From assembly GCA_048939765.1 (NCBI GenBank), contig JBHLPF010000015.1:1-64000 (forward strand): a stretch of 64,000 nt of DNA, in the 5' to 3' direction. This DNA is from Promethearchaeota archaeon. Its GTDB lineage: Archaea; Asgardarchaeota; Thorarchaeia; Thorarchaeales; Thorarchaeaceae. The position numbers and the translations under genes were made by a program. Positions 3,118 to 17,228 of this stretch are shown piece by piece. The notes under the pieces are model-generated. The model was not told where the DNA came from. It was given only the letters and a program-made list of their open reading frames with translations, and made no database searches. The stretch's first letter is position 1. Each line of letters begins with the position of its first letter.

Positions 3118-4817
3118 AAGAAGCTCTCTGGAGCTCTCTCCCAGATGTCTTCATCAACTGATGCAATCACATATTGATAGCCCTGTTCTGTTAGAAAGAG
3201 CTGACGCTTCGCTGCAAAGTCCATGTCTCGAGTGTCCTTTGTGATGAGTGAGTAGAATCTTGCAAAGCTACCATCTGTCTTTGGTCTTAGAATTCTACCA
3301 AGTCGTTGTGCTTCCTCCTGTCGAGACCCAAATGTGCCCGACACTTGAATGGCCACATTGGCATCGGGAAGATCAAGTGCGAAATTGGCGACCTTCGACA
3401 CTACGAGAATTTTCTGTTCTCCTACCCTAAATGCTTCATATAATCTCTGACGTTCTGAGTTGGGCGTTTTACCAGTAATTAGAGGCGCCTCTATCTCCTC
3501 TGCAATAATCTTGAGCTGGTTGAGATACATCCCGATGATCAGAACATTGTCTTCTTCGTGATAAGCTACCAGAGTCTTGATGAGTTTGTTCTTCTCTGGG
3601 TTCTCTGCGGCAATTCTGTATTTCTTCCTGTCCTCAGCAAGAGCATACTTTCTTCTCATTGGGTCCGGCAACTCAAGGCGTATCTCATAGCATATAGCGG
3701 TGGCAATCCATCCCTGGTCCTCAAGGAGCTTCCAAGGCATGTCATATCGCTTCGGCCCAATTAGGCTGAATACATCTTCCTCTCGCCCGTCCTCACGGAC
3801 AAGAGTGGCGGTCAGTCCAAGCCGCCGAGTTGCTTGTATAGTCGCAGTCGCTCTAAAAACTGGAGCTGGAAGAAGGTGGACTTCGTCATATATGATTAGT
3901 CCCCAATTCCTGGCCTCGAAGATGCCAAAGTGCTCAAAGGAGTCTTCTCGAGATTTCCGCCATGTGAGTATCTGATAGGTAGCAACAGTAATCGGTCGCA
4001 CCTCTTTCAAGTCGCCGGTGTACTCACCTATGTCCTCAGGCTTCAAATCCGTTTTATCAAGAAGCTCTTGAATCCATTGTCGAACTGCAATCACATTGGG
4101 GCAAAGAATGAGAGTAGATGTCTGCAGCTTGTCTATCGCGCCCATCCCGACCATAGTCTTGCCCGCTCCACAAGGCAATACAACAACTCCCGACCCCCCT
4201 TTGACACCTCCGCCAGCATAGAAGGTATCCACGGCATCCCTCTGATATCTCCGCAGTCCCCATGATTTCCCTTCAAGTGTCACATCCCGCATTCTTAGGG
4301 CGAGGGAGTCTCCTTCTACATAGCCAGCGAGGTCCTCTACTGGATGGCCCAGCTCAAGTAGCGCGTGCTTCAGAAATCCCCTTTGACCTTCAACAACTAG
4401 AAATGATCTCTCATCGATTCGTTCTTCAAGATACTGCTCAAGTTTTGTCTGGGCCCCAATCTCTTCAGCCAAGTCTTCTTCCTCACACTCCAATATGAGG
4501 TCTGGACCCTCCATGTACAATGTGATTTGACCATACCTGGACATGTACTCGATAATCTCGCGCTTGATATTGTCAGGAATTGGATACTTTGCATATTTCT
4601 CCAGGGCATCAATGACTTCTCTGGCAGTCATGCCCATTGCGGCAGAGTTCCACAGGCTCAATGGAGTAACTCGGTAGGTGTGTACATACTCTGGACTCTT
4701 CACTAGCTCTGCAAACCTGGCTAGAGAGTCCCTGGCTTCTTCATATTTGGGATTGTCCACTTCAAGAAGGACTGACTTGTCAGACTGAACTATCAAAGGG
4801 TTCATTGGGTTTGGCAT
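3114..4817 (-). CDS. xpb: XPB/Ssl2/Rad25 SF2 DNA helicase with N-terminal helicase-associated domain
   Basis: LRRYQ, VLPCGAGKT, DEVH, GLTATLVRED (RED motif), QRLGRILR; N-terminal PLIVQSD...HTYRVTPLSLWN. Confidence 0.93.
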   Translation of the reverse strand: MPNPMNPLIVQSDKSVLLEVDNPKYEEARDSLARFAELVKSPEYVHTYRVTPLSLWNSAAMGMTAREVIDALEKYAKYPIPDNIKREIIEYMSRYGQITLYMEGPDLILECEEEDLAEEIGAQTKLEQYLEERIDERSFLVVEGQRGFLKHALLELGHPVEDLAGYVEGDSLALRMRDVTLEGKSWGLRRYQRDAVDTFYAGGGVKGGSGVVVLPCGAGKTMVGMGAIDKLQTSTLILCPNVIAVRQWIQELLDKTDLKPEDIGEYTGDLKEVRPITVATYQILTWRKSREDSFEHFGIFEARNWGLIIYDEVHLLPAPVFRATATIQATRRLGLTATLVREDGREEDVFSLIGPKRYDMPWKLLEDQGWIATAICYEIRLELPDPMRRKYALAEDRKKYRIAAENPEKNKLIKTLVAYHEEDNVLIIGMYLNQLKIIAEEIEAPLITGKTPNSERQRLYEAFRVGEQKILVVSKVANFALDLPDANVAIQVSGTFGSRQEEAQRLGRILRPKTDGSFARFYSLITKDTRDMDFAAKRQLFLTEQGYQYVIASVDEDIWERAPESFF

Positions 4818-4998
4818 TTAGATTCCTCTTGCTGGGCAGCGGTTTCACTCCTTAACTTAGAAGGGTCAATTCGTGAGTTGGAAACCGAAGGACGGCGAGA
4901 TGACTTTAAAATAAATCCTTCCTTTCAACACAATTTTCTCAACATGGGCATCTATATTAGCAGGTCTTCAGCGCTTCGTGAAACGATGGTGAAGCCAA

Positions 4999-6399
4999 GT
5001 GGGACGAATCAATCCCAGCCGTTTATACACAAATCTTAGCGTCATGGTTCTCTCATTTGACGCGCTTTTGATTATGCTAGGATTTGGGATTATTGCTCCT
5101 TCGATGGCTTTCTATCTTATCGCTCTTGAAGGAGGACTTACTCAGCCGCCTGGTCCCGGATATATAGTTCCAGACGAGGTTGTGGCTTCGTTTGCGATTA
5201 TTCTGGGCATAATGATGGCCGCGTTCATGTTCTCACGAACAATCTTTGCTAGATACTTCGGCGGCCTTTCGGACACTCGAGGTCGCAAGCCCCTATTGAT
5301 GATAGGCCTGCTGGGCTATTTCCTTCTGCTCTTGCTCTTCGGTCTTGCTCGGTCATGGATTGATCTCCTTATCATTCGCTTTCTCCAAGGGATTGTTTCT
5401 GGGATGGTATGGCCAGTAGCAGAAGCTTCACTCATGGATATAGTGGGTTTCGACCGAAGAGGGGAAGGGCTCGGAATCTATATGTTCGTTTCAAATATTG
5501 GGTTTGTGGCTGGACCCGGACTTGGAGGCATCCTCTACAATTTCTGTCGTGACTTCCTTCTTCTTCCAGTGCCGGATGTTTTTAGGGTGCCATATTTCAT
5601 GGCGGCCCTCATCGTTCTGCCTGCAGTCTTACTGACGGGGATTAGTCTCAAAGAAACATCTCCCTTGAAGATACGGGAGAAGAAACCGACTGAACAGCCT
5701 CAGGAGATGGAGCTTGAGCCTTCTCGTCTTATGCTGTCCGATAATGAAATTGCACCGAGCACCCGTAGGATGATCAATGTGCTCTACGTTATGGCCATGA
5801 TGAATGGAATTGCCATGGGGCTGGGGCAGCCTCTATTCCAGTTGTTTCTCATGAGCAAGATAACAACAGACATTGGTTTGATTGGCTTTATCATTTCGGG
5901 AGCCGGAGCAATAGGTATGTTATTCACTGTACCTGCCGGGCGATATGCTGATAGACGTGGTCGAAAGGGTCTAGCTGTTTGGGGTGCTGTTGGCGCCAGA
6001 GCAAGTCTCGCGATATTGCCCGCGACAACGAATGTTCTTCAGACTGGAGCTGTGTGGATAGCTCAGAGCGCATCTATGTCTGCATCGCAACCAGCAATGC
6101 GCGCGATACAGGCAGATATAGTGCCTTGGAGTCTTCGCGGCAAGCTATTTGGTACGATTCAAGCTTTCTTCAATGCGGGAGCAACAATAGGACCGCTCGT
6201 TGGCGGGACAATCTATGCCTACTTCTCGCTTCTGACATTCAACTTTGGAGTTGCGATTATTGAAGGCTTTATGGTTCCTTTCTGGTTAGCTGCAGGGCTA
6301 GGTCTGATAGGGGCGTTCTTGGTATGGAAGTATATCGAAGAAACTTCTCCGGTACAGGTGCTGCTAGAAGAACCAAGTGAAGTTGCTGACGCAACTTGA
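4999..6399 (+). CDS. MFS transporter
   Basis: About 12 TM segments; motif A GGLSDTRGRK and GRYADRRGRK. Confidence 0.9.
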   Translation: MGRINPSRLYTNLSVMVLSFDALLIMLGFGIIAPSMAFYLIALEGGLTQPPGPGYIVPDEVVASFAIILGIMMAAFMFSRTIFARYFGGLSDTRGRKPLLMIGLLGYFLLLLLFGLARSWIDLLIIRFLQGIVSGMVWPVAEASLMDIVGFDRRGEGLGIYMFVSNIGFVAGPGLGGILYNFCRDFLLLPVPDVFRVPYFMAALIVLPAVLLTGISLKETSPLKIREKKPTEQPQEMELEPSRLMLSDNEIAPSTRRMINVLYVMAMMNGIAMGLGQPLFQLFLMSKITTDIGLIGFIISGAGAIGMLFTVPAGRYADRRGRKGLAVWGAVGARASLAILPATTNVLQTGAVWIAQSASMSASQPAMRAIQADIVPWSLRGKLFGTIQAFFNAGATIGPLVGGTIYAYFSLLTFNFGVAIIEGFMVPFWLAAGLGLIGAFLVWKYIEETSPVQVLLEEPSEVADAT

Positions 6400-6482
6400 A
6401 ACTGCATGACGCTGACCACAAATCCTTTATAGAAAATTCCGTGAGCAGGACCTGCATGACTCGAAAGGAGGTGCAGTTCCAT

Positions 6483-6542
6483 ATGATGGTAATAGAATTG
6501 GTTAATGCAGTGGACACTTGCACCCGCATTGAGGGTGTCTAA
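6483..6542 (+). CDS. Putative 19-aa leader peptide MMVIELVNAVDTCTRIEGV
   Basis: Strong Shine-Dalgarno AAAGGAGGTG (6464-6473) 9 nt before ATG 6483; TATA-like TTTATAGA at 6426-6433. Confidence 0.4.
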   Translation: MMVIELVNAVDTCTRIEGV

Positions 6543-6557
6543 TAGAACGGCATCCGC

Positions 6558-6717
6558 TGTTTCTTTGTGCTAGCATTCATTTCACGCATCATGATTGTGA
6601 TGCTCATTGACGCACATAGCGCGTGGCTAGTTGTCTGCTGACCTTGGTCTGATGTGCTTAGAATGTAAGATGCGTACCAGCTCAGTCAATGAGAGTGAAA
6701 TCAGAAGTTGAGAAACA
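6558..6717 (+). ncRNA. Candidate structured RNA element upstream of the RIO kinase
   Basis: Nested complementary segments: TGTTTCT/AGAAACA, ATTTCAC/GTGAAAT, CTCATTGAC/GTCAATGAG, GCACAT/ATGTGC, plus hairpin GCATCA/TGATGC. Confidence 0.4.
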
Positions 6718-6763
6718 AAACGACACAAGGAATGCTGGGCTCACATTACAGTAGGTGTGAACT

Positions 6764-7600
6764 GTGAGCCGAGTCGAGAAGCATAATCCCTTGAAGAGTG
6801 GCGCAATCGCTCAAAAGCGTGCCGCTCTAAGGGCAGAGACCTCTGGTAGGATAACTGAAATCAAAGAGCTCACCTTTGATACTGTCCGTGAAGATGCGAT
6901 ACAATACGGTCTTGCCACGGACGTCATCTATCAGATCAACGCTGGAAAGGAAGCCTCGATCTTCCTCGCTCAATGGAGAGGACACCATATAATTCTGAAA
7001 GCATATCGTCTATGGCAATCCTCTCACAAGATGTCGAAGAAGAGGGGATACGTTGCACAGGGCACAGGCAAGAGAACGTACTTCATTCTTGGAATGATGG
7101 AGGACTTGGCCGTCATGGAGTACGATTATCTCATGAACTGCTTCAGAGCAGGGGTTCATGTTCCTACTCCCATTGGTCGAGTTGGAAACTACCTCACAAT
7201 GAGATTCATAGGCGATGAAACCCAGCCTGCACCCCAGCTCAAAGATGTCAATCTTGAGAATCCTGAGAATGTCCTAGATCAGATACTGGATGACTATCTC
7301 TTGATGTATGGCAAAGCTCACTATGTCCATGGAGACCTCAGCAAGTACAATGTACTCTGGTGGCAAGACCGCCCTTGGATTATTGATGTTCCGCAAGCGG
7401 TCACTGTCAACAAGTGGTCTGATATGCTGAGGGTTGAGAAGTTACTCATGAGGGACATCAAGAATGTACTAGATCATTTCGAGAGCTACGGCATTCATCG
7501 AGACCCAGACCTTATCCTCGACGTCTTCCTCTCTGAGTATATCCCTGAGAATCTCAAGAACTACAGAGAACTCGAGTCGGAAGGTATTGAGTTGCTTTAG
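6764..7600 (+). CDS. RIO1-family atypical Ser/Thr kinase
   Basis: GKEASIF P-loop, VPTP, HGDLSKYNVL catalytic loop, IDVPQ. Confidence 0.9.
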   Translation: MSRVEKHNPLKSGAIAQKRAALRAETSGRITEIKELTFDTVREDAIQYGLATDVIYQINAGKEASIFLAQWRGHHIILKAYRLWQSSHKMSKKRGYVAQGTGKRTYFILGMMEDLAVMEYDYLMNCFRAGVHVPTPIGRVGNYLTMRFIGDETQPAPQLKDVNLENPENVLDQILDDYLLMYGKAHYVHGDLSKYNVLWWQDRPWIIDVPQAVTVNKWSDMLRVEKLLMRDIKNVLDHFESYGIHRDPDLILDVFLSEYIPENLKNYRELESEGIELL

Positions 7601-7753
7601 AGGAGAGTGGTCGAGAATCCGTCGGCACGCCTTTATGGCGTATGGGGTGAACCATTCTAGGTATTCAAAGTACAAGTTCTATACTATCAGAGTGTGCCTT
7701 ATTGTAGCTGTTTCTCATCCCGAGGTTATTAGGAAAAACCGACACAATACGGT

Positions 7754-7978
7754 ATGAAAGATAGTGCTGGCAAGTGGGTGGTCGTCAACGGACGAGTTTT
7801 CAGACTCGAGCGAGTTGTTGATGAAGTCTGCACCGCGCTGCTTCTCCAGAGGACTCTTTCCGTACTATGTGATGTCCACCTGAAGCGCACCGACGATGGA
7901 AGATGGGCTGTATATTGGAGATCTAAAAAGGACAGAATTGAATGCACACCAAGGGCTATAGTAACTCCTATGGAATAA
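7754..7978 (+). CDS. Small hypothetical protein
   Basis: 74-aa ORF in an otherwise empty gap, followed by a hairpin. Confidence 0.5.
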   Translation: MKDSAGKWVVVNGRVFRLERVVDEVCTALLLQRTLSVLCDVHLKRTDDGRWAVYWRSKKDRIECTPRAIVTPME

Positions 7979-7998
7979 AAACAAAAAGAAGGTGTAGT

Positions 7999-8017
7999 CG
8001 GAGTGGTTCGCACTCCG
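7999..8017. terminator. Hairpin between convergent genes
   Basis: CGGAGTG-GTTCG-CACTCCG, with an A-tract at about 7977-7990 (U-tract on the minus strand). Confidence 0.5.
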
Positions 8018-8083
8018 CGTTCATTTGGGTAGATAGCTTCTCTCCGGTCCAATGAAAGAGGGAAACAAATCTGGCGATCCTTA

Positions 8084-8500
8084 CTAGTCTACCTTGCGCA
8101 GCACAACCCTAGAAACACCAGGTATCTTCCTGAGGCTCTCCTCAAGCTCCTTCAGTGTAACAACGAGCTGATCCGGTACAAAGTAACACTCGTAGTAGCA
8201 TTTTTCGCCCCTGAGACAAACGCCAGTCGTGAAAATGATGTCACTAAGCTTGGCATCGTTGAAAGCGAAGTTCAGCTGCTTCAAGAAGTTCCTTGACAGA
8301 TCACTGATTTCAATTCGAAGCAGGTAAATATCATCGCTAGAAACCGGAAAGATCTTCATAACTCTGTCCTTGTGATGCAACACGGTCAGAGCCGCTCGCT
8401 CCCCAATGTCGGCGACAAAATCTTGAGGAAATTCTACGGGCTTCCCCTCAGTGAAGTGAAGTATGATTGCGCTTGTTGCTCCCTCACGGTCTATAGTCAC
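8084..8500 (-). CDS. Hypothetical protein (possible ACT-like C-terminal domain)
   Basis: 138-aa ORF ending LEESLRKIPGVSRVVL, as seen in ACT/ferredoxin-like folds. Confidence 0.65.
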   Translation of the reverse strand: MTIDREGATSAIILHFTEGKPVEFPQDFVADIGERAALTVLHHKDRVMKIFPVSSDDIYLLRIEISDLSRNFLKQLNFAFNDAKLSDIIFTTGVCLRGEKCYYECYFVPDQLVVTLKELEESLRKIPGVSRVVLRKVD

Positions 8501-8690: not shown

Positions 8691-9404
8691 GTGAATCCAC
8701 GTCTATCTCAGTTTCTAGGAGTCATTTTTCTCGTCATATGTCTTGCAATGTCCTATATCGTATACCAATCTACCATTCAGGTCGGTGGAGATGTGGGGAC
8801 TCTCATTACATCAGGCATTATCGCATGGGGGATTCTTGGTCTGCCTGAATTGGCAATCGGACTTTGGCTCATCATAAAGGGGACTCGAGACGCACGAGTC
8901 GGCGACATCTCCGGAAAGCTTATTCTCCTTGTACAGAAGGAAGGTCGAATTGGTGTGGCTGAAGCTGCAAGAGAGCTTGGCGTAGGTCCATCAGATGTCG
9001 CAGATGCTGCAGAGAAGCTAGCACGTAGGCGTCTTCCTCTTGTCTATCTTGACAGAGGGAAAAATGAGATTGTCAGTCCGTCTGCAGTGTCCCTCGAAGA
9101 GAGTCTTTTGCATCTACTACATGCCCAGCGGCGAATGACATTCGATCAGATTTCGAATGTTGCCAATGCGACCGATAATCAGATTGTCGAAGCCCTTGAG
9201 CATCTATCCAGCAAGGGAAAATTCAGGGGCACTATCGACAAGAACTCCCGAGTGGTATATACATCGGAAGCAGTCGAACAGCTCCCTAAAGCTGTAACTG
9301 CATGTCCGAATTGTGGTGGCAGGCTTCCAAATCCAATACTCCCTGGAGAAGAGGAAAACTGCCCATTCTGCGGACATTCCATTGTCAACCGTTTGGATAT
9401 CTAG
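8691..9404 (+). CDS. Membrane protein with 2 TM, tandem winged-helix (PCI-like) domains and a C-terminal zinc ribbon
   Basis: Two hydrophobic helices; GRIGVAEAARELG and RRMTFDQISNVAN...GKFRGTID wHTH-like repeats; CPNCG...CPFCG. Confidence 0.75.
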   Translation: MNPRLSQFLGVIFLVICLAMSYIVYQSTIQVGGDVGTLITSGIIAWGILGLPELAIGLWLIIKGTRDARVGDISGKLILLVQKEGRIGVAEAARELGVGPSDVADAAEKLARRRLPLVYLDRGKNEIVSPSAVSLEESLLHLLHAQRRMTFDQISNVANATDNQIVEALEHLSSKGKFRGTIDKNSRVVYTSEAVEQLPKAVTACPNCGGRLPNPILPGEEENCPFCGHSIVNRLDI

Positions 9405-9414
9405 TGCCGTGGCA

Positions 9415-10545
9415 TTATCTGTCCATATACGTTTCCCAGATATCTAGAATCTCATCACCAGAGGTCGCGTAGAATCTACTTGAGAGATTAGCTGCAAGAC
9501 ATGAGTGATTCGGTAGGATTCTGACACGATTTCCAGGAACTAGGCCCTTCAAAGGTGAGCCCTTGCCTATCTTCACTTTTCCATGTTCTTGAGAGAGTCC
9601 TGTTATGTCAGTGTATTTCGCGAAGTCCCCCTCGTGATAGTCTGAAATGATTTTTCCAAATCCACAGTCTGGATGGAGATGCCTGGGCCCTGTGTCTAAC
9701 GAGAGTGCTGTTGCACCGGCATCAAGAATGACTCTATCAGGATATGCGCTTATGATACTCGAGAGAACCGTTAGCGAACAGTGGTATGGTTTGCAGACTC
9801 CCAGTGCAACCTGTGTATAGTCAAAGAAGACATAGCTGCCTGGGCGAACTTCTGTTATGCCCTTTTTGATAGAGTCACTCAACATCATAGCTGGAGTAGA
9901 GCCAATGCTGACTATCCTTGGCGCAAGCGCTTTGCTCCTTTTTCTCAAATCTCTGGCAAACTTGAGCATAATATCCTGCTCTTCCTCAGCGATAAATTTG
10001 ATTTCATCAACTGACTTGGCATAATATGAATGGCCACTATGAGTTAGGATTCCAGCGAAGTTGAGTCCTCGCGCCTGGTGAATCTTTTCTGCAAGAGCTA
10101 AGGAACCCTTCTTCGAGGGATCTACACCACTTCGATGATAGTTGCAGTCAACTTTGAGAAGTACATCAAGCTCCTCTTTGGCTTTCCTAAATCTTGATCT
10201 CAGTTCTTTGAGTGCTGCAGGATGGTCGATAATTACCCGGAATTTGATCTTGATGGCAAGCTTGGCTGCGGCACTTATCTTATCCGGGGCTAGGGGCACT
10301 GCCAATGTAATGTCATCAAATCCGTTCTCCGCAAAGAACATTGCTTCACCCATTGTTGAGACTGTGATGCCCGAGGCTCCATAGTTCCTTTGAATCTCTG
10401 CAATCTCAACACACTTGTGTGTCTTGACATGCGGTCTCAGAGCTACTTGGTGTTCGCGTGCCTTGTTTGCCATGTTTTTGATGTTTTGCACGAGTCTGTC
10501 ATAGTCTATCAAGGTCGCTGGAGTTGTCAGGTCATCAACGCGCAT
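9415..10545 (-). CDS. PLP fold-type III enzyme, D-serine dehydratase/D-threonine aldolase (DSD1-like) family
   Basis: TPA, LRPHVKTHK PLP-lysine motif, HSGH, GSTP, EVRPGSYVFFD, SQEHG, PNHSC; start set to ATG 10545. Confidence 0.88.
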   Translation of the reverse strand: MRVDDLTTPATLIDYDRLVQNIKNMANKAREHQVALRPHVKTHKCVEIAEIQRNYGASGITVSTMGEAMFFAENGFDDITLAVPLAPDKISAAAKLAIKIKFRVIIDHPAALKELRSRFRKAKEELDVLLKVDCNYHRSGVDPSKKGSLALAEKIHQARGLNFAGILTHSGHSYYAKSVDEIKFIAEEEQDIMLKFARDLRKRSKALAPRIVSIGSTPAMMLSDSIKKGITEVRPGSYVFFDYTQVALGVCKPYHCSLTVLSSIISAYPDRVILDAGATALSLDTGPRHLHPDCGFGKIISDYHEGDFAKYTDITGLSQEHGKVKIGKGSPLKGLVPGNRVRILPNHSCLAANLSSRFYATSGDEILDIWETYMDR

Positions 10546-10592
10546 GTCATTTCCGAAGCTAACGCCCCTCAAAACCGTTGTTGTGCTGTCCT

Positions 10593-12014
10593 CTAAGTTA
10601 TGCCATGTTGGTCGCCACGGATTCTTCTTCTCAGACTAAGCCTTGCCTCATCTACCTTAGAAGCAACACGACTCTTCCTAGGCCAATACTCCTTGATCTC
10701 TTCATATCCTTGGACATCCCAGTACAGTGGACAAGCGCCAAAGCAATAATCAAAATGAGTGCATACCTTGCAGCCCTCAGCCGCGAAGTCTTTGCTCCTC
10801 CAGAATCTAGATGCTCGATTGTTCCACACTTTGTCAAAGGATTCTTCCAATAGATTACCCACTGGATCGCTGAAGCTAGAGCAAGGAAGAAGCCCTCCTT
10901 CTGAATCTACGGACAATAAGCCGTCACATGCGGCGCAGCTCTTTGCACCTAATCCAAGCGAAATAGGATTGAATACGCATACTGGAGTAGGAGCATACCA
11001 GACGAATTGCACCCCTTTCTTGTTTGCCCTCTTTTTGACTCGCTTCACGATCTCTCCGATGTCTTCATACTTTACCTGTAACCTATCTCTGAGTTTTGCG
11101 GCGGTGCCAGTATAGATGACCATGTTCATGCTGAAATAACTCAGTTCCAATTCATCAGCAATGAAATCAACCAATTCTTCAAGTTTGTCAACATTGGGCC
11201 TGCAAATTGTAGTATTGCAATGGGTGTAGATTTCAGTTTCTTTCAGATTCCTGATTCCTTGAACTGTTTGCCCAAAGGACCCTGGAGCGCCAGCAATTTC
11301 GTCATGCGTCTTTGCATCGGGACCCTCGATTGATACCTGGGCACTGTTCAAATCCGCTTGAACTAGTCTTTGAACGAAATTTGGGTCTGCACACCTTCGG
11401 CCGTTTGTGATAAGATTGACACGGAGCCCTTTCTCTCGCGCATATGCTATGAGCTCAAAAAGGTCCTCACGTAGAGTTGGTTCACCTCCAGTGAAGGAAA
11501 GACTTGGAACGTGGGCCTCATTAACAATGATGTCAATAATCCGCTTCACCTCGTCTGTGGTCATCTCTTTGGTCTCTCGATGCGGGGAGAATGCATAGCA
11601 GAATTGACATTCATTGTTACATCGGTAGGTTAGGGCAATCTCACTCAATACTGGATATTTGATATCGCCTTCTCCAAAAGGTACAATTTTGGCAGTCTTG
11701 TATGAGTAGATGTTCTGATTCCCCATCACCATGCTTCTTAGGTCATCAACAAAGGCGGCCAGATCATTTAGTACTTGCTGTTCATCAGCCTCAAAGTTCC
11801 TCACAAAGTGGTTTCTGACCTCTTCTGCGGTTGCGCCATCAAGCAGCATCCGTAACATTACTGTCCCCGTTTCATTGAGGTGCATGACCTTGTTTGGACG
11901 CAGTATCAAGAGGTTATCCTGCGGCCTTACAAAGAAATAATCCTTGACCTCCTGCATGAAATTGACTATCCAGCTGAGGTCCTCTAGTTTGTAGTCGTAC
12001 CTTGGCTGATGCAT
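10593..12014 (-). CDS. Radical SAM/SPASM peptide maturase with N-terminal PqqD-like RRE
   Basis: CNNECQFC (CxxxCxxC), FTGGEP; SPASM cysteines CAAC...PC and CKVC..FDYCFGACP; N-terminal LNETG..ML..L.GATAEEV...DLAAFVDDL PqqD pattern. Confidence 0.9.
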   Translation of the reverse strand: MHQPRYDYKLEDLSWIVNFMQEVKDYFFVRPQDNLLILRPNKVMHLNETGTVMLRMLLDGATAEEVRNHFVRNFEADEQQVLNDLAAFVDDLRSMVMGNQNIYSYKTAKIVPFGEGDIKYPVLSEIALTYRCNNECQFCYAFSPHRETKEMTTDEVKRIIDIIVNEAHVPSLSFTGGEPTLREDLFELIAYAREKGLRVNLITNGRRCADPNFVQRLVQADLNSAQVSIEGPDAKTHDEIAGAPGSFGQTVQGIRNLKETEIYTHCNTTICRPNVDKLEELVDFIADELELSYFSMNMVIYTGTAAKLRDRLQVKYEDIGEIVKRVKKRANKKGVQFVWYAPTPVCVFNPISLGLGAKSCAACDGLLSVDSEGGLLPCSSFSDPVGNLLEESFDKVWNNRASRFWRSKDFAAEGCKVCTHFDYCFGACPLYWDVQGYEEIKEYWPRKSRVASKVDEARLSLRRRIRGDQHGIT

Positions 12015-12123
12015 CGTTCGTGAGGGCTTAGCTGGATGTGTCTTAAGGATTCGCCTACAACCTGAAAGGCTTATCAGCCTCTATATCCGAGTAGAGGCAA
12101 GGCACCGTTAAGGAGTGTGTCAT

Positions 12124-12516
12124 ATGAGTTCCGAAATGAAGTTGCCATATGGAACAATCAGCAAGAAGAAGCTGATTATGCATTTCAGCGCCTTTGATAT
12201 CGATTTGCCAGTGATTGCTGCTGGAATCAGAGAGAGGATGGATGTCTTGCGAGAGCTTGAGGTTGCTTTTGCAGGGTTTGGAACAGAGATACCAGCAGAG
12301 ATGACTGAACAGACACCAGCCACGGTAAAGGCATTCTTCGAGTATGTGGGAAAGGGGACTGACGCTGATGTCATCCTCAAGCGAGTCTATCATCTTATCT
12401 GGGGAGGCATGATTCAGGAGTTTCCAGACCTTGATGAGTGGGCTGCAGCAAAGGCCGATTTATCAAATCTAACAATCGCTCAAGCAGATGTGCTGCGTGC
12501 ACGCAGAGGAGAATAG
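12124..12516 (+). CDS. Hypothetical protein
   Basis: Globular ORF of about 130 aa with an AAGGAG SD upstream. Confidence 0.75.
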   Translation: MSSEMKLPYGTISKKKLIMHFSAFDIDLPVIAAGIRERMDVLRELEVAFAGFGTEIPAEMTEQTPATVKAFFEYVGKGTDADVILKRVYHLIWGGMIQEFPDLDEWAAAKADLSNLTIAQADVLRARRGE

Positions 12517-12599
12517 TGGAGCCACCTTTGAGATGTTTACTACCAGTACAGTAGCTCGAAAGGGATACGATCTGGAATATTGGTGTAGGGGTTGATATA

Positions 12600-14759
12600 T
12601 TGAAGCGTAGTCTAGCTCTTGCCTTCACATTTGGGTTCATTCTTTTTGCTATTGCTCCTTTATGCGTGACAGGTACAATAGTTAGCCAGAGCCCAGTTAT
12701 CAACCTTGACAGCATTTATGTCGACGTGGTGGTTCTCGAAAATGGCCGAATAAATGTCACATATTGGATAAACATATCCGTAATTGAGAATTCCTTGGGC
12801 GGATTCGATTTAGCGGGGATTCAAGAAACCACGATTTATGATCCGGATCGCGCGTACGCTGAGGTGGATGGAAACCGCTACAATCTGATCGTTGGACAGC
12901 TCTCAAATGGCTATGCTCTAGACTGGACTCCCCGGACTCAAGCTGGAGAAACAGTCACCGTAGTATTCGGGTATTTCAGTACAAACAGGGTCCTAGAGAT
13001 GACGACTGGAACATTTACTCTAGAGGGCTCTGGTCTGCAAGTCACCGGCGATTTGGCTGTCTTCAACTGGGCTCCGGTCCAGTGGAGTGTACCTCTTGAT
13101 TATGAGAATGTGAGAGTTATCTATCCCATTGAAATGCAGGCTTCATGGATCACAGGGGAAAGTGGAATTACACCAGAAGGCGCTGACTACGCAGGCTATG
13201 TTGTGGACGGTCATCAAAGGCTCGAGGATAATTATGGCAGCTTCTTCGCCTTCGATGAGCAGAATCTTCTTGCTTATCCTTCATCAGCTTCTGCTGACCC
13301 TCGCTATTTCAGTGTCAGTTTAGGACATTCCAATCTAGGCTCCTATGATCACTTTCGTGTTTTTCACTATACCAATTGGAGTTTTTATGCTCCATATCTC
13401 GAACCGGGTGCTATTGCCTATAGTACTCAGGAGAATATCAATGCAGATGCAAACACGGAATTCTCAGTTGGCGTGGATGTGTTCAATATAGGAGATGCTC
13501 CGCTCAATGATGTCACGGTGACACTCTCAATTCCAGATAATCTCACCTTGACCTCTGGCCAAGTTTCTACCTATGTTGGGGCACTTGATGGCGGGGAGAA
13601 CTCCCATTTGACATACCAATTCATCCCCGATAATATTCCAGAGATTCTTCCCCTCACTTTTCAGATATCATCTTCCAGTCTCAACACTAGCGATTGGGTT
13701 ACATTTACAATCAACATCTACGTGCGGGAGATCATTCCTCCCTTGATACCTCCGAATCTCCTGATTTGGGGATCTGCTGGAATAACGGCCATAGCTGTTG
13801 TTTCTCTTGGCTATCGTCGAATAATGGGTGGATATGGAGCAAAATGGGAAGTTGATGAAACAACCAAGGCATATCAGAGCCCGGAGATAGCCATCCAGAC
13901 TTTTGGCACACCAGGAACTGTTGCAGATCTTGATCCTGTTGAGAGCGCGTTCTTTGTCAACACGAATCGCAAGAAACTGGTGTCAATGATCCTTATGTCC
14001 TGCGTGAAGAAGGGTGCAGTAAGGATGCTTTCAACGGATCCATTGCGCCTTTCAGATACGGGCCTGAGGTTCGAGGACCTCACTTACTATGAAGAGATGT
14101 TTGTCGGCTCCATTGACAACAACGAGCTTGACCCCGACAAGATTGATGATATGTTGGAAGAACTCGCTGAGAAGGTCCAGGAGAAATCTTGGGATGCGGA
14201 CTTCGAGGCCACAAAAACCCATCATGAGGAGATGGTCGATGGTGCTTGGGAGGAACTTGAAAGCGATCCGACACTTGATGGGCGTGTAGATTACTACTTC
14301 AATCGGAGATACCACGACACATGGGCTTGGTACTGGTTCTACATGCATCCTCATCACAACCAAAGAATCGGACACGTGTTCACTCCCCCAGGTGGGACGA
14401 TTGCCCCACCAAGGATACCTGACTGGTTTGGTCAGATTGCTGATGCTGCTGGCCATTCAATTGGCGAAGTTGGACGTGTGGTTGGAGATGTAGCTTCCAC
14501 CACGGGCCAAATCATGACTAATGTGACAAATACCATTGGAGATGTCCTTTCGGGAGTTGGTAACATTATCCGAGAACCGCTGAAACCAATCTTGGAAGAG
14601 ACCAGTCGTTGCGTGTCTCATGATGCCTGCCACTCTGCATGCGTTTCGCACGATGCATGTCATAGTGCCTGTCACAGCGCATGCCATAGTGCCTGTGTAT
14701 GCCATAGCGCCTGTCATAGTGCATGCCACAGTGCATGTGTTTCTGGAGGATTTAGATAA
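12600..14759 (+). CDS. DUF2207-like membrane protein with Ig-like domain and C-terminal Cys/His repeat tail
   Basis: Signal peptide; VDVVVLENGRINVTY DUF2207-like start; VFNIGDAPLNDVTVTL Ig/CARDB-like domain; one TM; LDPVESA...VKKGAV region; (CHSA)n tail. Confidence 0.85.
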   Translation: MKRSLALAFTFGFILFAIAPLCVTGTIVSQSPVINLDSIYVDVVVLENGRINVTYWINISVIENSLGGFDLAGIQETTIYDPDRAYAEVDGNRYNLIVGQLSNGYALDWTPRTQAGETVTVVFGYFSTNRVLEMTTGTFTLEGSGLQVTGDLAVFNWAPVQWSVPLDYENVRVIYPIEMQASWITGESGITPEGADYAGYVVDGHQRLEDNYGSFFAFDEQNLLAYPSSASADPRYFSVSLGHSNLGSYDHFRVFHYTNWSFYAPYLEPGAIAYSTQENINADANTEFSVGVDVFNIGDAPLNDVTVTLSIPDNLTLTSGQVSTYVGALDGGENSHLTYQFIPDNIPEILPLTFQISSSSLNTSDWVTFTINIYVREIIPPLIPPNLLIWGSAGITAIAVVSLGYRRIMGGYGAKWEVDETTKAYQSPEIAIQTFGTPGTVADLDPVESAFFVNTNRKKLVSMILMSCVKKGAVRMLSTDPLRLSDTGLRFEDLTYYEEMFVGSIDNNELDPDKIDDMLEELAEKVQEKSWDADFEATKTHHEEMVDGAWEELESDPTLDGRVDYYFNRRYHDTWAWYWFYMHPHHNQRIGHVFTPPGGTIAPPRIPDWFGQIADAAGHSIGEVGRVVGDVASTTGQIMTNVTNTIGDVLSGVGNIIREPLKPILEETSRCVSHDACHSACVSHDACHSACHSACHSACVCHSACHSACHSACVSGGFR
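14610..14759 (+). repeat. Coding tandem repeat: 7x CHSA and 2x CVSHDA
   Basis: 12-bp units such as TGCCACTCTGCA, TGTCATAGTGCC and TGTCACAGCGCA differ only synonymously. Confidence 0.95.
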
Positions 14760-15526
14760 TGGGAGAAACTATCAAGACAATATTTCATTTGAGCGATATC
14801 CACATTGGAGAACAAGGAGTATCTTTAGGGGACTTCCGTGAAGTAATCGAGAGTATTGAGAAGCGTGCTCCGCATATGACCTCGCCTCTTATTCTTATCA
14901 CGGGCGATCTAACAGGGGAGGGACTTAGAGAGGAGTATGAAGCATTCTCTAATGTTGTATCTAGTATAGAAACTCCTCTCATAATCGTGCCTGGAAACCA
15001 TGACGAGCGCAACTACGGTGCTGCGCACTTCGAGGAGATGTTTGGAGAGCGTTTCAAGACTTACGAGGATGAATCAATTGCGTTGTACGCAGCAGACAGT
15101 GCAGAACCAGACAACGATGCAGGACATGTTGGGCGGACCAAGTACAATGAGATACATGACTTTCTCGGAGGGGCGAAGGAGAAGGTGCGCATATTCGCAT
15201 TGCATCATCATCTGATACCGGTCCCAAACACTGGGAGGGAACACAACGTTGTGGAGGACTCTGGTGCTGTCCTAGGCCTATTGGATCGGACGCAATGCTC
15301 ATTGGTCCTAAATGGTCATCGTCACGTCCCCTGGATGTGGAATCTGAATGATATGATTGTATACACAACAGGTACCCTGCTATCCCGTCGCGTTCGTGGA
15401 GCCACTACTCAAGTCTATACGCTCATCGAGCTTAGCAAGACCGATGCCACATTTACATTGGTCGAGAAGTCCGGTTCTGCAAGTCTATTCTCGCGCGCTG
15501 AGCTTCGTCCAGCTGTCCTTGGATAG
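14759..15526 (+). CDS. Calcineurin-like metallophosphoesterase (Icc/CpdA-like)
   Basis: SDIH, TGDL, PGNHD, HHH, GHRH; start overlaps the upstream stop (TAATG). Confidence 0.92.
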   Translation: MGETIKTIFHLSDIHIGEQGVSLGDFREVIESIEKRAPHMTSPLILITGDLTGEGLREEYEAFSNVVSSIETPLIIVPGNHDERNYGAAHFEEMFGERFKTYEDESIALYAADSAEPDNDAGHVGRTKYNEIHDFLGGAKEKVRIFALHHHLIPVPNTGREHNVVEDSGAVLGLLDRTQCSLVLNGHRHVPWMWNLNDMIVYTTGTLLSRRVRGATTQVYTLIELSKTDATFTLVEKSGSASLFSRAELRPAVLG

Positions 15527-15895: not shown

Positions 15896-16010
15896 GCTTC
15901 TACCCTTATCATCTTCAAGCAAGATTGACTAAAAGATGTTGTCACGGAAAAGTGGTCTAGTTTCGCCGGTAGATTCTATAGCCAGTTAAATTCGTGTTTC
16001 ATTGATTCTA

Positions 16011-17228
16011 ATGGACGTTAGCAGAGAATTCATACGGCTTTGCGGAGAGGCAGGCAATTTTTCAAGAAACGTGACCGGTTTAAGCATTGTTGACGCATAT
16101 TATGGACCAGATGAACTGGCACCAGACAGGCAGGCAACTAATCGCAAACCAGAGATTATTCTGGATGAGTTATCAGTCTTGGCAGATAATGTCAAGGATC
16201 AGATTGACCTGCCTCTGCGCTCGAAGTATCTTATTACGGAAATTCATTCATTGCAATCTGTAGTCAAATGGATGGCAGGAGAGGAAATGTCCTATGTCGA
16301 CATAGTGGAGAATGTCTATGGCATCAAACCAACCAGATTCTCCGAGAAAGAGGTAGAGGCAGCAATGAAGGAAGTAGAGATTGCATTCTCAGACTGTCCT
16401 GGCAATGACACGAGAGAGCAGGTGGAACTATTCAGGCTTGACGGACAGGTGCAAGGAGATGCCGCAAAGAACTACATTGAAGGAGAATTACAGCAAAGCG
16501 CGAAGAATGTAGGAATACTGTTTCAGAAAAAGGTCTATGCTCTCATGGATGCTGCGGTGACAGATAATGGTGTTGAGTACAAAGCAGTGACTGACAAGCC
16601 CTGGGGAGCATATAACTACTACCAAGGAAACTACAGGTCAAAAAACGAGTTCAATGTTGATCGTCCATTTAGTAGGCACGGACTGGCTGCTGTAATCTAC
16701 CATGAGTATGAGCATCATGTTTCGAATCTGTGGAGAGAGAAGGCATATCGCGAGAACGATTGGACTGACCTCTCAATCGTCCCACTGACGGGAAGATGCG
16801 TTATTTCAGAGGGAACTGCAGATACTGCCATGGACTTTCTTGAACTTGGCGAAGAATCTGATGATTCTCGTAGGAATCGAGCCTTGAGGACCCTTTCTCA
16901 AATGTGTAGCATGAATGCGGCACTAATGCTGAATCGTGAGCACGCCTCGGAAGATGATGCTGTTGAATATCTGGTTGAGCGGACCTTCGGCAAGGAAGAG
17001 CGCATAAGGCCCTCTCTTGAATTCTCTCGGATTAGGACTGAAGAAGGAAAACTGAATCTTTGGGCTCCTTACATTTTCAATTATCTCATAGGTAGAAAGG
17101 AGTTTGTCCTTCCAACATTTCTCAAAGCCAAGGAAAATGATATGCTTTCAGACTTCTTCAGAACAGTCTATCTTAACCCTTATTCGGGTTCAAGCAGAAC
17201 TTGGAACGCAGCTTTCGACTGGCTCTAG
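16011..17228 (+). CDS. Putative zincin metallopeptidase (DUF885-like)
   Basis: VDAYYGP, HEYEH (HExxH), downstream ISEGTA third-ligand motif. Confidence 0.7.
   Translation: MDVSREFIRLCGEAGNFSRNVTGLSIVDAYYGPDELAPDRQATNRKPEIILDELSVLADNVKDQIDLPLRSKYLITEIHSLQSVVKWMAGEEMSYVDIVENVYGIKPTRFSEKEVEAAMKEVEIAFSDCPGNDTREQVELFRLDGQVQGDAAKNYIEGELQQSAKNVGILFQKKVYALMDAAVTDNGVEYKAVTDKPWGAYNYYQGNYRSKNEFNVDRPFSRHGLAAVIYHEYEHHVSNLWREKAYRENDWTDLSIVPLTGRCVISEGTADTAMDFLELGEESDDSRRNRALRTLSQMCSMNAALMLNREHASEDDAVEYLVERTFGKEERIRPSLEFSRIRTEEGKLNLWAPYIFNYLIGRKEFVLPTFLKAKENDMLSDFFRTVYLNPYSGSSRTWNAAFDWL

Follow-up and report, generated by a model that had tools for sequence, protein, structure and literature searches.

A radical SAM enzyme linked to the conserved Cys/His tail of a single-pass membrane protein in Thorarchaeota and Chloroflexota

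In a 64,000-nucleotide stretch of a Promethearchaeota archaeon genome (assembly GCA_048939765.1, contig JBHLPF010000015.1, positions 1 to 64,000; hereafter the window), the gene for a radical S-adenosylmethionine (SAM) enzyme with a SPASM domain lies close to the gene for a 719-aa membrane protein that ends in a repetitive tail of cysteines and histidines. We found that these two genes accompany each other through archaea and bacteria, that the tail is held almost invariant by selection, and that the enzyme has the domain make-up of the maturases of RiPPs (peptides that are made by the ribosome and modified after translation), including a PqqD-like RiPP recognition element (RRE). What we show is the domain composition, a model of the topology, the linkage of the genes and the selection that acts on the tail; the binding, substrate, chemistry and function proposed below are inferred, and we consider it probable that the enzyme modifies the cytoplasmic tail of the membrane protein. 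This had been the central idea of a preliminary description of the locus, made from the DNA letters, and comparative evidence now lends it support, leaving it a probable rather than an established role. We would accordingly describe the locus as a likely module for the maturation of a protein tail, with a core formed by the enzyme and a receptor-like single-pass membrane protein bearing a fixed Cys/His tail.

Linkage of the enzyme and the tail protein

In a set of 61 genomes related to that of the window, enzyme and tail protein were either both present or both absent, and were adjacent wherever the contigs allow. Within the window's own family the tail protein was found in 26 of 36 genomes and the enzyme in 28 of 36, and five genomes that are 88-98% complete carried neither. 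An apparent exception, with the tail protein and no enzyme (G004), was rejected on account of a scaffold gap.

The linkage was also followed outward from each partner. Starting from the enzyme, a profile-pattern search with one genome per species returned at least 549 relatives, of which the best 80 were examined for an open reading frame (ORF) within 6 kb that encodes at least 150 aa and terminates in a CHSA-type tail. Such a tail gene was present in 68 of these 80 loci (67 by the scan, plus locus L069, in which the tail stands behind an in-frame TAG), and contig ends cut 8 of the 12 misses. Starting from the tail, a DNA pattern for 10 tail residues was scanned over metagenome contigs; it matched always at the 3' end of an ORF (500-900 aa where the ORF is complete), and the enzyme was encoded on 45 of the 49 contigs having at least 1.5 kb beyond the tail, with two of the four misses being Thorarchaeota-type contigs without upstream room. 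The co-occurrence of this radical SAM subfamily with Cys/His-tailed DUF2207-like proteins, which the preliminary description had put forward as a check, is thus borne out from both directions and in two domains of life. The best 80 loci comprised Thorarchaeota (67-89% identity to the window enzyme), many Anaerolineae/Chloroflexota (46-51%), and small numbers of Thermoproteota, Nitrososphaerota and unclassified archaea; most of the non-Thorarchaeota matches among them came from Chloroflexota, and the emphasis first placed on Asgard archaea was therefore too narrow.

The arrangement of the pair differs between lineages. The two genes are divergent in Thorarchaeota; in most Chloroflexota loci the tail gene comes first and the enzyme gene follows within ~200 bp, often abutting or overlapping it; and the enzyme gene lies ahead of the tail gene in Thermoproteota and in a distant Asgard genome (G041), where a 40% identical enzyme is followed directly by a 924-aa membrane protein with a shorter CHSA tail. 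Because gene order differs while the pair persists, it is the pair, not the neighbourhood, that is conserved. We regard it as highly improbable that the adjacency is merely inherited synteny with no functional link: the wider Thorarchaeota neighbourhood is indeed syntenic as well (including a D-serine-dehydratase-like gene and a gene for a 237-aa protein), but the pair persists in three gene orders, in Thorarchaeota, another Asgard family, some Thermoproteota and many Anaerolineae/Chloroflexota, while its surroundings change, and the presence and absence of the two proteins are correlated. At one locus (L059; G023:C14:68000-80000, ~3900-8140) the radical SAM gene is cut after ~residue 238 and runs into the next gene, and the tail protein has lost its transmembrane (TM) helix to an in-frame deletion but retained the tail; this locus may show a joint decay of the two proteins.

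The conserved tail and its proposed modification

The last 51 residues of the 719-aa protein hold 11 Cys and 9 His, arranged in C-H-S-A units together with two CVSHDA units and one CVC. In 20 homologs of the same archaeal family this tail is identical or differs by one residue, while the remaining protein is 56-95% identical, so that it is not a chance stretch of low complexity. When the window was compared codon by codon with 19 homologs, the differences in the tail were 468 synonymous vs. 9 non-synonymous, and those in the rest of the protein were 4351 synonymous vs. 3945 non-synonymous; the tail is under extreme purifying selection. It is also the most conserved part of the protein, with most invariant columns of a cross-domain alignment falling within it, and its length and repeat number are fixed to the residue from archaea to bacteria, which speaks against its being a plain low-complexity spacer or the result of recent DNA slippage. 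This is the single periodic Cys tail found in the window's own genome, and on its own it matched no repeat-peptide model of NCBIfam (even at E 10) or Pfam. If its modification is confirmed, the target sequence would be among the most conserved short motifs common to archaea and bacteria.

Two side observations concern the DNA of the tail. In a Thorarchaeota metagenome-assembled genome (MAG), an in-frame TAG lies 24 codons before the Cys tail (L001 4371-4373, on the same contig as L069), behind which the amino acid sequence is intact with many synonymous changes; possible explanations of this TAG are an error of sequencing, a nonsense mutation of recent origin or read-through. Antisense to the tail in the window runs a 90-aa ORF (14457-14729, - strand), which is very likely not a gene since it is open only through the codon make-up of the repeat.

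An AlphaFold2 model of the 719-aa protein, built on 18 homologs, has an N-terminal hydrophobic helix (residues 2-22), beta-sandwich domains with high pLDDT (33-376), one TM helix (385-408) and a helical, winged-helix-like cytoplasmic part (446-651), followed by the tail with a pLDDT below 45. The predicted signal peptide and single TM helix would place the tail in the cytoplasm, as had been proposed at the outset, and therefore within reach of the radical SAM enzyme. The best PDB matches to this model in Foldseek were 8b6l_O (E 1.6e-9), 6s7o_E, 7oci_A and 6ezn_A, with TM-scores of just 0.2-0.3; we take these to be ribophorin I/Ost1 subunits of the eukaryotic oligosaccharyltransferase. Like the tail protein, they have a pair of outer beta-sandwich domains, a single TM helix and a cytoplasmic part that is helical, and the resemblance may reflect a DUF2207/ribophorin-like ectodomain in an Asgard archaeon.

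Neither the 719-aa protein nor the 130-aa protein encoded beside it falls into a curated family of Pfam or NCBIfam, and the former has no match to DUF2207 (PF09972; gathering score 24.4) at E ≤0.01. It is homologous over its full length to a 591-aa protein of Chloroflexota type (L061; C-terminal half, E 1e-46; N-terminal part, E 9e-13), which itself scores 22.8 bits on DUF2207 (E 1.2e-4, just below the cut-off of 24.4) and 16.4 bits on TIGR04222 (E 0.005, over a segment just inside the membrane; cut-off 43). The nearest ESM Atlas clusters carry the name DUF2207, and the tail protein appears to be a distant relative of DUF2207 rather than a recognised member. A profile search with its family (library clustered at 50% identity, E ≤0.001) returned 686 representatives, whose tails are of a CH[S/D/N]AC type or of a (Cys-Ala)n-GGGR type, with a single hybrid (P0167, CHSAC...CACACAGGGW). 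Membrane proteins of 560-600 aa ending in (Cys-Ala)n-GGGR adjoin 30-34% identical enzymes in two genomes (G037, L054 1180-2853; and G040, L055 6880-8667), and there as well as in a third case (L268, 4001-7181) the paralogous PqqD-radical SAM-SPASM genes start inside or just after the tail codons; at another locus a protein with such a tail adjoins a HypE-like gene.

The enzyme matches three Pfam families, PqqD (residues 37-94, 43.1 bits vs. a cut-off of 23.4), Radical_SAM (128-285, 92.4 bits, above its cut-off) and SPASM (360-419, 28.4 bits vs. 21.5), and its N-terminus is the RRE that had first been proposed. In an alignment of 12 relatives, the cysteines of the CxxxCxxC motif (C132, C136, C139) are invariant, as are six of those expected of SPASM (C360, C378, C415, C418, C424, C428), with a seventh, C346, nearly so. 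Given this CxxxCxxC motif, a seven-Cys SPASM domain (two auxiliary clusters) and a PqqD-like RRE, the enzyme would by its sequence be counted among the RRE-radical SAM-SPASM maturases as a functional class, but it falls into no named family. The nearest solved structures are SkfB, the tetraether synthase GDGT-MAS, PqqE, CteB and SuiB, among which SkfB, PqqE, CteB and SuiB are peptide maturases, and the profile match to CteB sets in at enzyme residue 43, close to where the Pfam match to PqqD begins. Relatives of the enzyme are 67-95% identical within the Thorarchaeota family and 46-51% identical in Chloroflexota.

For the enzyme, none of the NCBIfam models attains its cut-off. The best matches, all below threshold, are to AhbD, NirJ2, PqqE, ScmE, MftC, HxsC, StsB, PapB and the ACGX system, which are generic SPASM families, and the scores for individual maturases fall well short: 54.5 bits vs. 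525 for TIGR04463 (rSAM_vs_C_rich, the CrpC family; match at window 11112-11639), 87.7 vs. 340 for the PapB-family ranthipeptide maturases (NF047865), 107.6 vs. 625 for StsB, 92.7 vs. 400 for the ACGX system (TIGR04340), and 110.9 vs. 267.9 for the His-Xaa-Ser system (TIGR03977). Since no curated maturase cut-off is reached, the reaction type cannot be read from homology. When the enzyme was modelled in complex with the C-terminal 110 residues of the tail protein, the prediction, run without controls, scored 0.00 and speaks neither in favour of binding nor against it.

In the mechanism that we propose, the RRE of the enzyme would dock on a segment within the membrane protein's cytoplasmic part, and the radical SAM site, aided by the two SPASM clusters, would work along the repeated C-H-S-A units. 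The most likely products would be Cys-to-carbon thioether crosslinks of -2 Da each, as in sactipeptides, ranthipeptides and the archaeal protein CrpA, with Cys-derived heterocycles as a second possibility; that the modification consists of thioethers specifically is plausible, if short of probable. This would yield a stiff module lined with His, probably able to bind metal and held under the membrane, which would act together with a membrane protein of winged helix-turn-helix (wHTH) and zinc-ribbon type and with accessory proteins that depend on the lineage (in Thorarchaeota the 130-aa protein, in Chloroflexota a coiled-coil protein of ~394 aa). More tentatively still, we suggest that the tail becomes a crosslinked or heterocyclised metal-binding or redox cofactor-like module that forms, with the wHTH/zinc-ribbon partner, an undescribed transmembrane sensing or metal-handling device of Asgard archaea and anaerobic bacteria; were this true, the system would represent not a natural-product pathway but a new cofactor derived from a protein.

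Several observations weigh against the tail being the substrate of the enzyme. Besides the absence of a curated maturase family for the enzyme, five Chloroflexota loci with full 6-kb flanks (L109, L113, L117, L126, L130) carry it with no tail gene nearby; in the Thorarchaeota locus L072, integrase-like genes occupy the place of the tail gene and no tail gene lies within 6 kb; and (Cys-Ala)n-tailed proteins are not always found beside a radical SAM gene. Furthermore, Cys and His at i/i+4 form a classic metal-binding pattern, which could explain the conservation of the tail with no modification at all. An alternative is that the tail is an unmodified metal- or iron-sulfur-binding module, and that the enzyme is linked to it otherwise (by being tethered to the membrane, or by receiving metal, clusters or electrons) and acts on another substrate. 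We think this unlikely. Some enzyme loci do lack a nearby tail gene, the 20 Cys and His residues within 51 positions are mostly spaced at i/i+4, a metal role is suspected by the authors who described CrpA (PMC13692751), and Bufferins bind copper via modified Cys residues (PMC12452194); but the enzyme has an RRE, which is a peptide-binding domain, and the sole other candidate substrate conserved in both lineages is the wHTH/zinc-ribbon protein. Metal-binding low-complexity tails usually vary in length between orthologs, unlike this one, whose length does not differ by a residue from archaea to bacteria.

Other genes of the locus

The features of the locus are listed in Table 1. The preliminary description had named four genes here, and their ORFs, the TAATG in which the ATG of the phosphoesterase gene overlaps the TAA stop of the 719-aa gene, and the 11-Cys/9-His tail were all recovered; the enzyme gene is divergent from the other three. 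As a gene set for the system, that list stands for the enzyme and the tail protein, and it missed a third conserved component, a wHTH/zinc-ribbon protein encoded at 8691-9404. No Cys-rich small ORF was found in the intergenic gaps (10-190 bp) when a separate small precursor peptide was looked for, in agreement with what had first been reported.

Table 1. Features of the enzyme-tail protein locus (window coordinates)
Feature	Position	Strand	Basis
Membrane protein, 237 aa, winged-helix domains and zinc ribbon at the C-terminus	8691-9404	+	Homology to the Chloroflexota ~164-aa gene
D-serine-dehydratase-like gene (Ala_racemase_N + D-ser_dehydrat)	9415-10572	-	
RRE (PqqD)-radical SAM-SPASM enzyme, 473 aa, proposed maturase	10593-12014	-	Pfam
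130-aa cytoplasmic protein, accessory gene specific to Thorarchaeota	12124-12516	+	Homologs
DUF2207-like single-pass membrane protein, 719 aa, TTG start	12600-14759	+	AlphaFold2 model and homologs
Signal peptide, residues 1-25 of the 719-aa protein	12600-12674	+	MKRSLALAFTFGFILFAIAPLCVTG; AlphaFold2 helix 2-22, then low-confidence linker
Single TM helix, residues 385-408, then YRR	13752-13823	+	AlphaFold2 and sequence
Cys/His tail, 51 residues (669-719), proposed modification site	14604-14756	+	
Metallophosphoesterase, 255 aa, variable neighbour	14759-15526	+	Pfam Metallophos

The third component is the 237-aa protein, which is homologous to a ~164-aa protein of Chloroflexota composed of TM helices, a wHTH domain and a zinc ribbon (hhalign probability 96.9%, E 1.9e-10; BLASTP E 4e-7). 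It is present in 30/36 Thorarchaeota loci and has a counterpart in 34/44 other loci, so that a membrane wHTH/zinc-ribbon protein is common to the systems of both domains of life. In Chloroflexota the enzyme gene is followed by the gene for the ~394-aa coiled-coil protein (42/44 loci) and then by the ~164-aa gene (34/44).

The remaining neighbours are specific to Thorarchaeota or variable. The 130-aa protein is found in 33/36 Thorarchaeota loci and in 0/44 others; of its 164 homologs, the 120 listed are 75-96% identical, and MAGs of Thorarchaeota or other Asgard archaea account for nearly all of those named. The longest ORF of its gene is 12115-12516 (+, 133 aa), and the start is probably the ATG at 12124, since the homologs measure 130-131 aa. 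Its AlphaFold2 model is alpha/beta, and it gave no Pfam or NCBIfam match, no significant fold match in the PDB and no similarity to the tail protein. The metallophosphoesterase has a clear Pfam match (PF00149, calcineurin-like; 58.6 bits vs. a cut-off of 21.5) and had originally been counted as part of the system, but it probably lies outside the core because it is present in just 14/36 Thorarchaeota loci and 0/44 others. The D-serine-dehydratase-like gene stands between the wHTH/zinc-ribbon gene and the enzyme gene in 28/36 Thorarchaeota loci and in no bacterial ones. Beyond the phosphoesterase, a 408-aa protein with an HEYEH (HExxH-like) motif (window 16002-17228), which has no Pfam or NCBIfam family, is a neighbour in 21/36 Thorarchaeota loci and thus oftener than the phosphoesterase; it was considered as a counterpart of the Chloroflexota coiled-coil gene and rejected, as the two have no relationship.

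These genes offer other potential substrates, and the enzyme might modify one of them (the wHTH/zinc-ribbon, 130-aa or ~394-aa coiled-coil protein) with the tail protein as its partner or regulator. Conservation together with the pair extends, for the wHTH/zinc-ribbon protein, to both domains of life, and its zinc ribbon has four cysteines; the 130-aa protein is conserved as strongly as the enzyme. Nevertheless, we consider such a substrate quite improbable: the accessory proteins differ by lineage and the tail is the constant; the 130-aa protein read from the ATG at 12124 has no cysteine in the window copy; the zinc-ribbon gene was not detected in 10/44 non-Thorarchaeota loci and does not stand beside the pair in the distant Asgard genome G041; and most Chloroflexota tail genes directly precede the enzyme gene, which is the usual position of a precursor.

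Relation to known systems

The pairing of this enzyme with this tail was found in no paper or curated family searched. Literature searches returned no paper linking DUF2207 with radical SAM enzymes and none with the tail motif (CHSACHSAC); a search for ACGX with radical SAM found nothing, and the papers on DUF2207 do not touch on the subject. RRE-containing radical SAM/SPASM enzymes serve as beacons for small peptide natural products, and the present case suggests a widespread clade of them that would act instead on the end of a full-size membrane protein.

A close parallel is the (Cys-Ala)n-GGGR system, for which we found no description in the literature searched. It belongs to the same protein superfamily and shows the same layout in G037, G040 and L268; unlike those of the CHSA system, however, its tails have no His and a period of 2, its enzymes are just 30-34% identical, and its linkage to the enzyme looks looser in the few loci examined.

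In domain make-up, the enzyme resembles the maturases of ranthipeptide and sactipeptide systems (PapB/freyrasin, CteB/SCIFF, SkfB, AlbA), which likewise combine an RRE, a radical SAM domain and SPASM and act on substrates with repeated Cys motifs. PapB substrates carry a C-x3-D motif, and the CVSHD of the tail contains one. The substrates of those systems, on the other hand, are short free peptides with leaders, and the window enzyme scores far below the cut-offs of their families. QhpD, also a radical SAM/SPASM enzyme, forms thioethers from Cys to Asp/Glu within a protein subunit, QhpC, the gamma subunit of quinohemoprotein amine dehydrogenase (QHNDH). It is similar to our proposal in that a radical SAM/SPASM enzyme acts on a protein subunit, but QhpC is a small soluble subunit of a periplasmic enzyme, with neither a repeat tail nor a membrane anchor. 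QHNDH has been cited as a protein with RiPP-like modifications (PMC13692751).

The closest precedent in print is CrpC/CrpA. Dieter et al., 2026 searched archaeal proteomes for Cys-rich proteins beside radical SAM enzymes and showed by mass spectrometry that CrpA of Methanococcus voltae, a soluble and Cys-rich protein of 28.8 kDa, receives ranthionine thioethers from CrpC (TIGR04463), beside which CrpB, a small accessory protein, is encoded (PMC13692751). As in the window, an RRE-radical SAM-SPASM enzyme stands beside a protein rather than a short peptide, and the Cys-rich repeats of CrpA are C-terminal. The differences are that the window enzyme is of another family, as its TIGR04463 score indicates, and that CrpA is soluble with 17-residue repeats and C-X-X-Q/D motifs, whereas the candidate substrate here is the cytoplasmic tail of a membrane protein, made of 4-residue C-H-S-A units. 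The CrpA paper deals with no membrane protein and no Asgard archaea, and a search of it for DUF2207 matched just a surname in the reference list (PMC13692751).

A second precedent is the proposal, made in a 2025 survey of MNIO enzymes (Microb Genom), that the Cys-rich tails of TIGR04222 membrane proteins are MNIO substrates (PMC12452194). Both there and here, a RiPP-type enzyme is proposed to act on whole proteins of the membrane whose C-terminal tails are rich in Cys and of low complexity. MNIO enzymes, however, are oxygen-dependent multinuclear iron enzymes and the window enzyme is a radical SAM enzyme, and the TIGR04222/MNIO tails are Ser/Gly/Cys-rich, variable and predicted to be periplasmic, with a looser association found mostly in Actinomycetota. 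The idea of RiPP chemistry on a whole protein, raised in the preliminary description, thus has a precedent in print in CrpC/CrpA. If action of the window's enzyme on its membrane-anchored tail is confirmed, it would extend radical SAM thioethers from a soluble protein (CrpA) to membrane-anchored substrates and would provide a first clue to what one branch of the large DUF2207/TIGR04222-like proteins does. The system in the window combines the ideas of both precedents, a radical SAM enzyme and the tail of a membrane protein, with an enzyme of a different family and a tail that is far more conserved.

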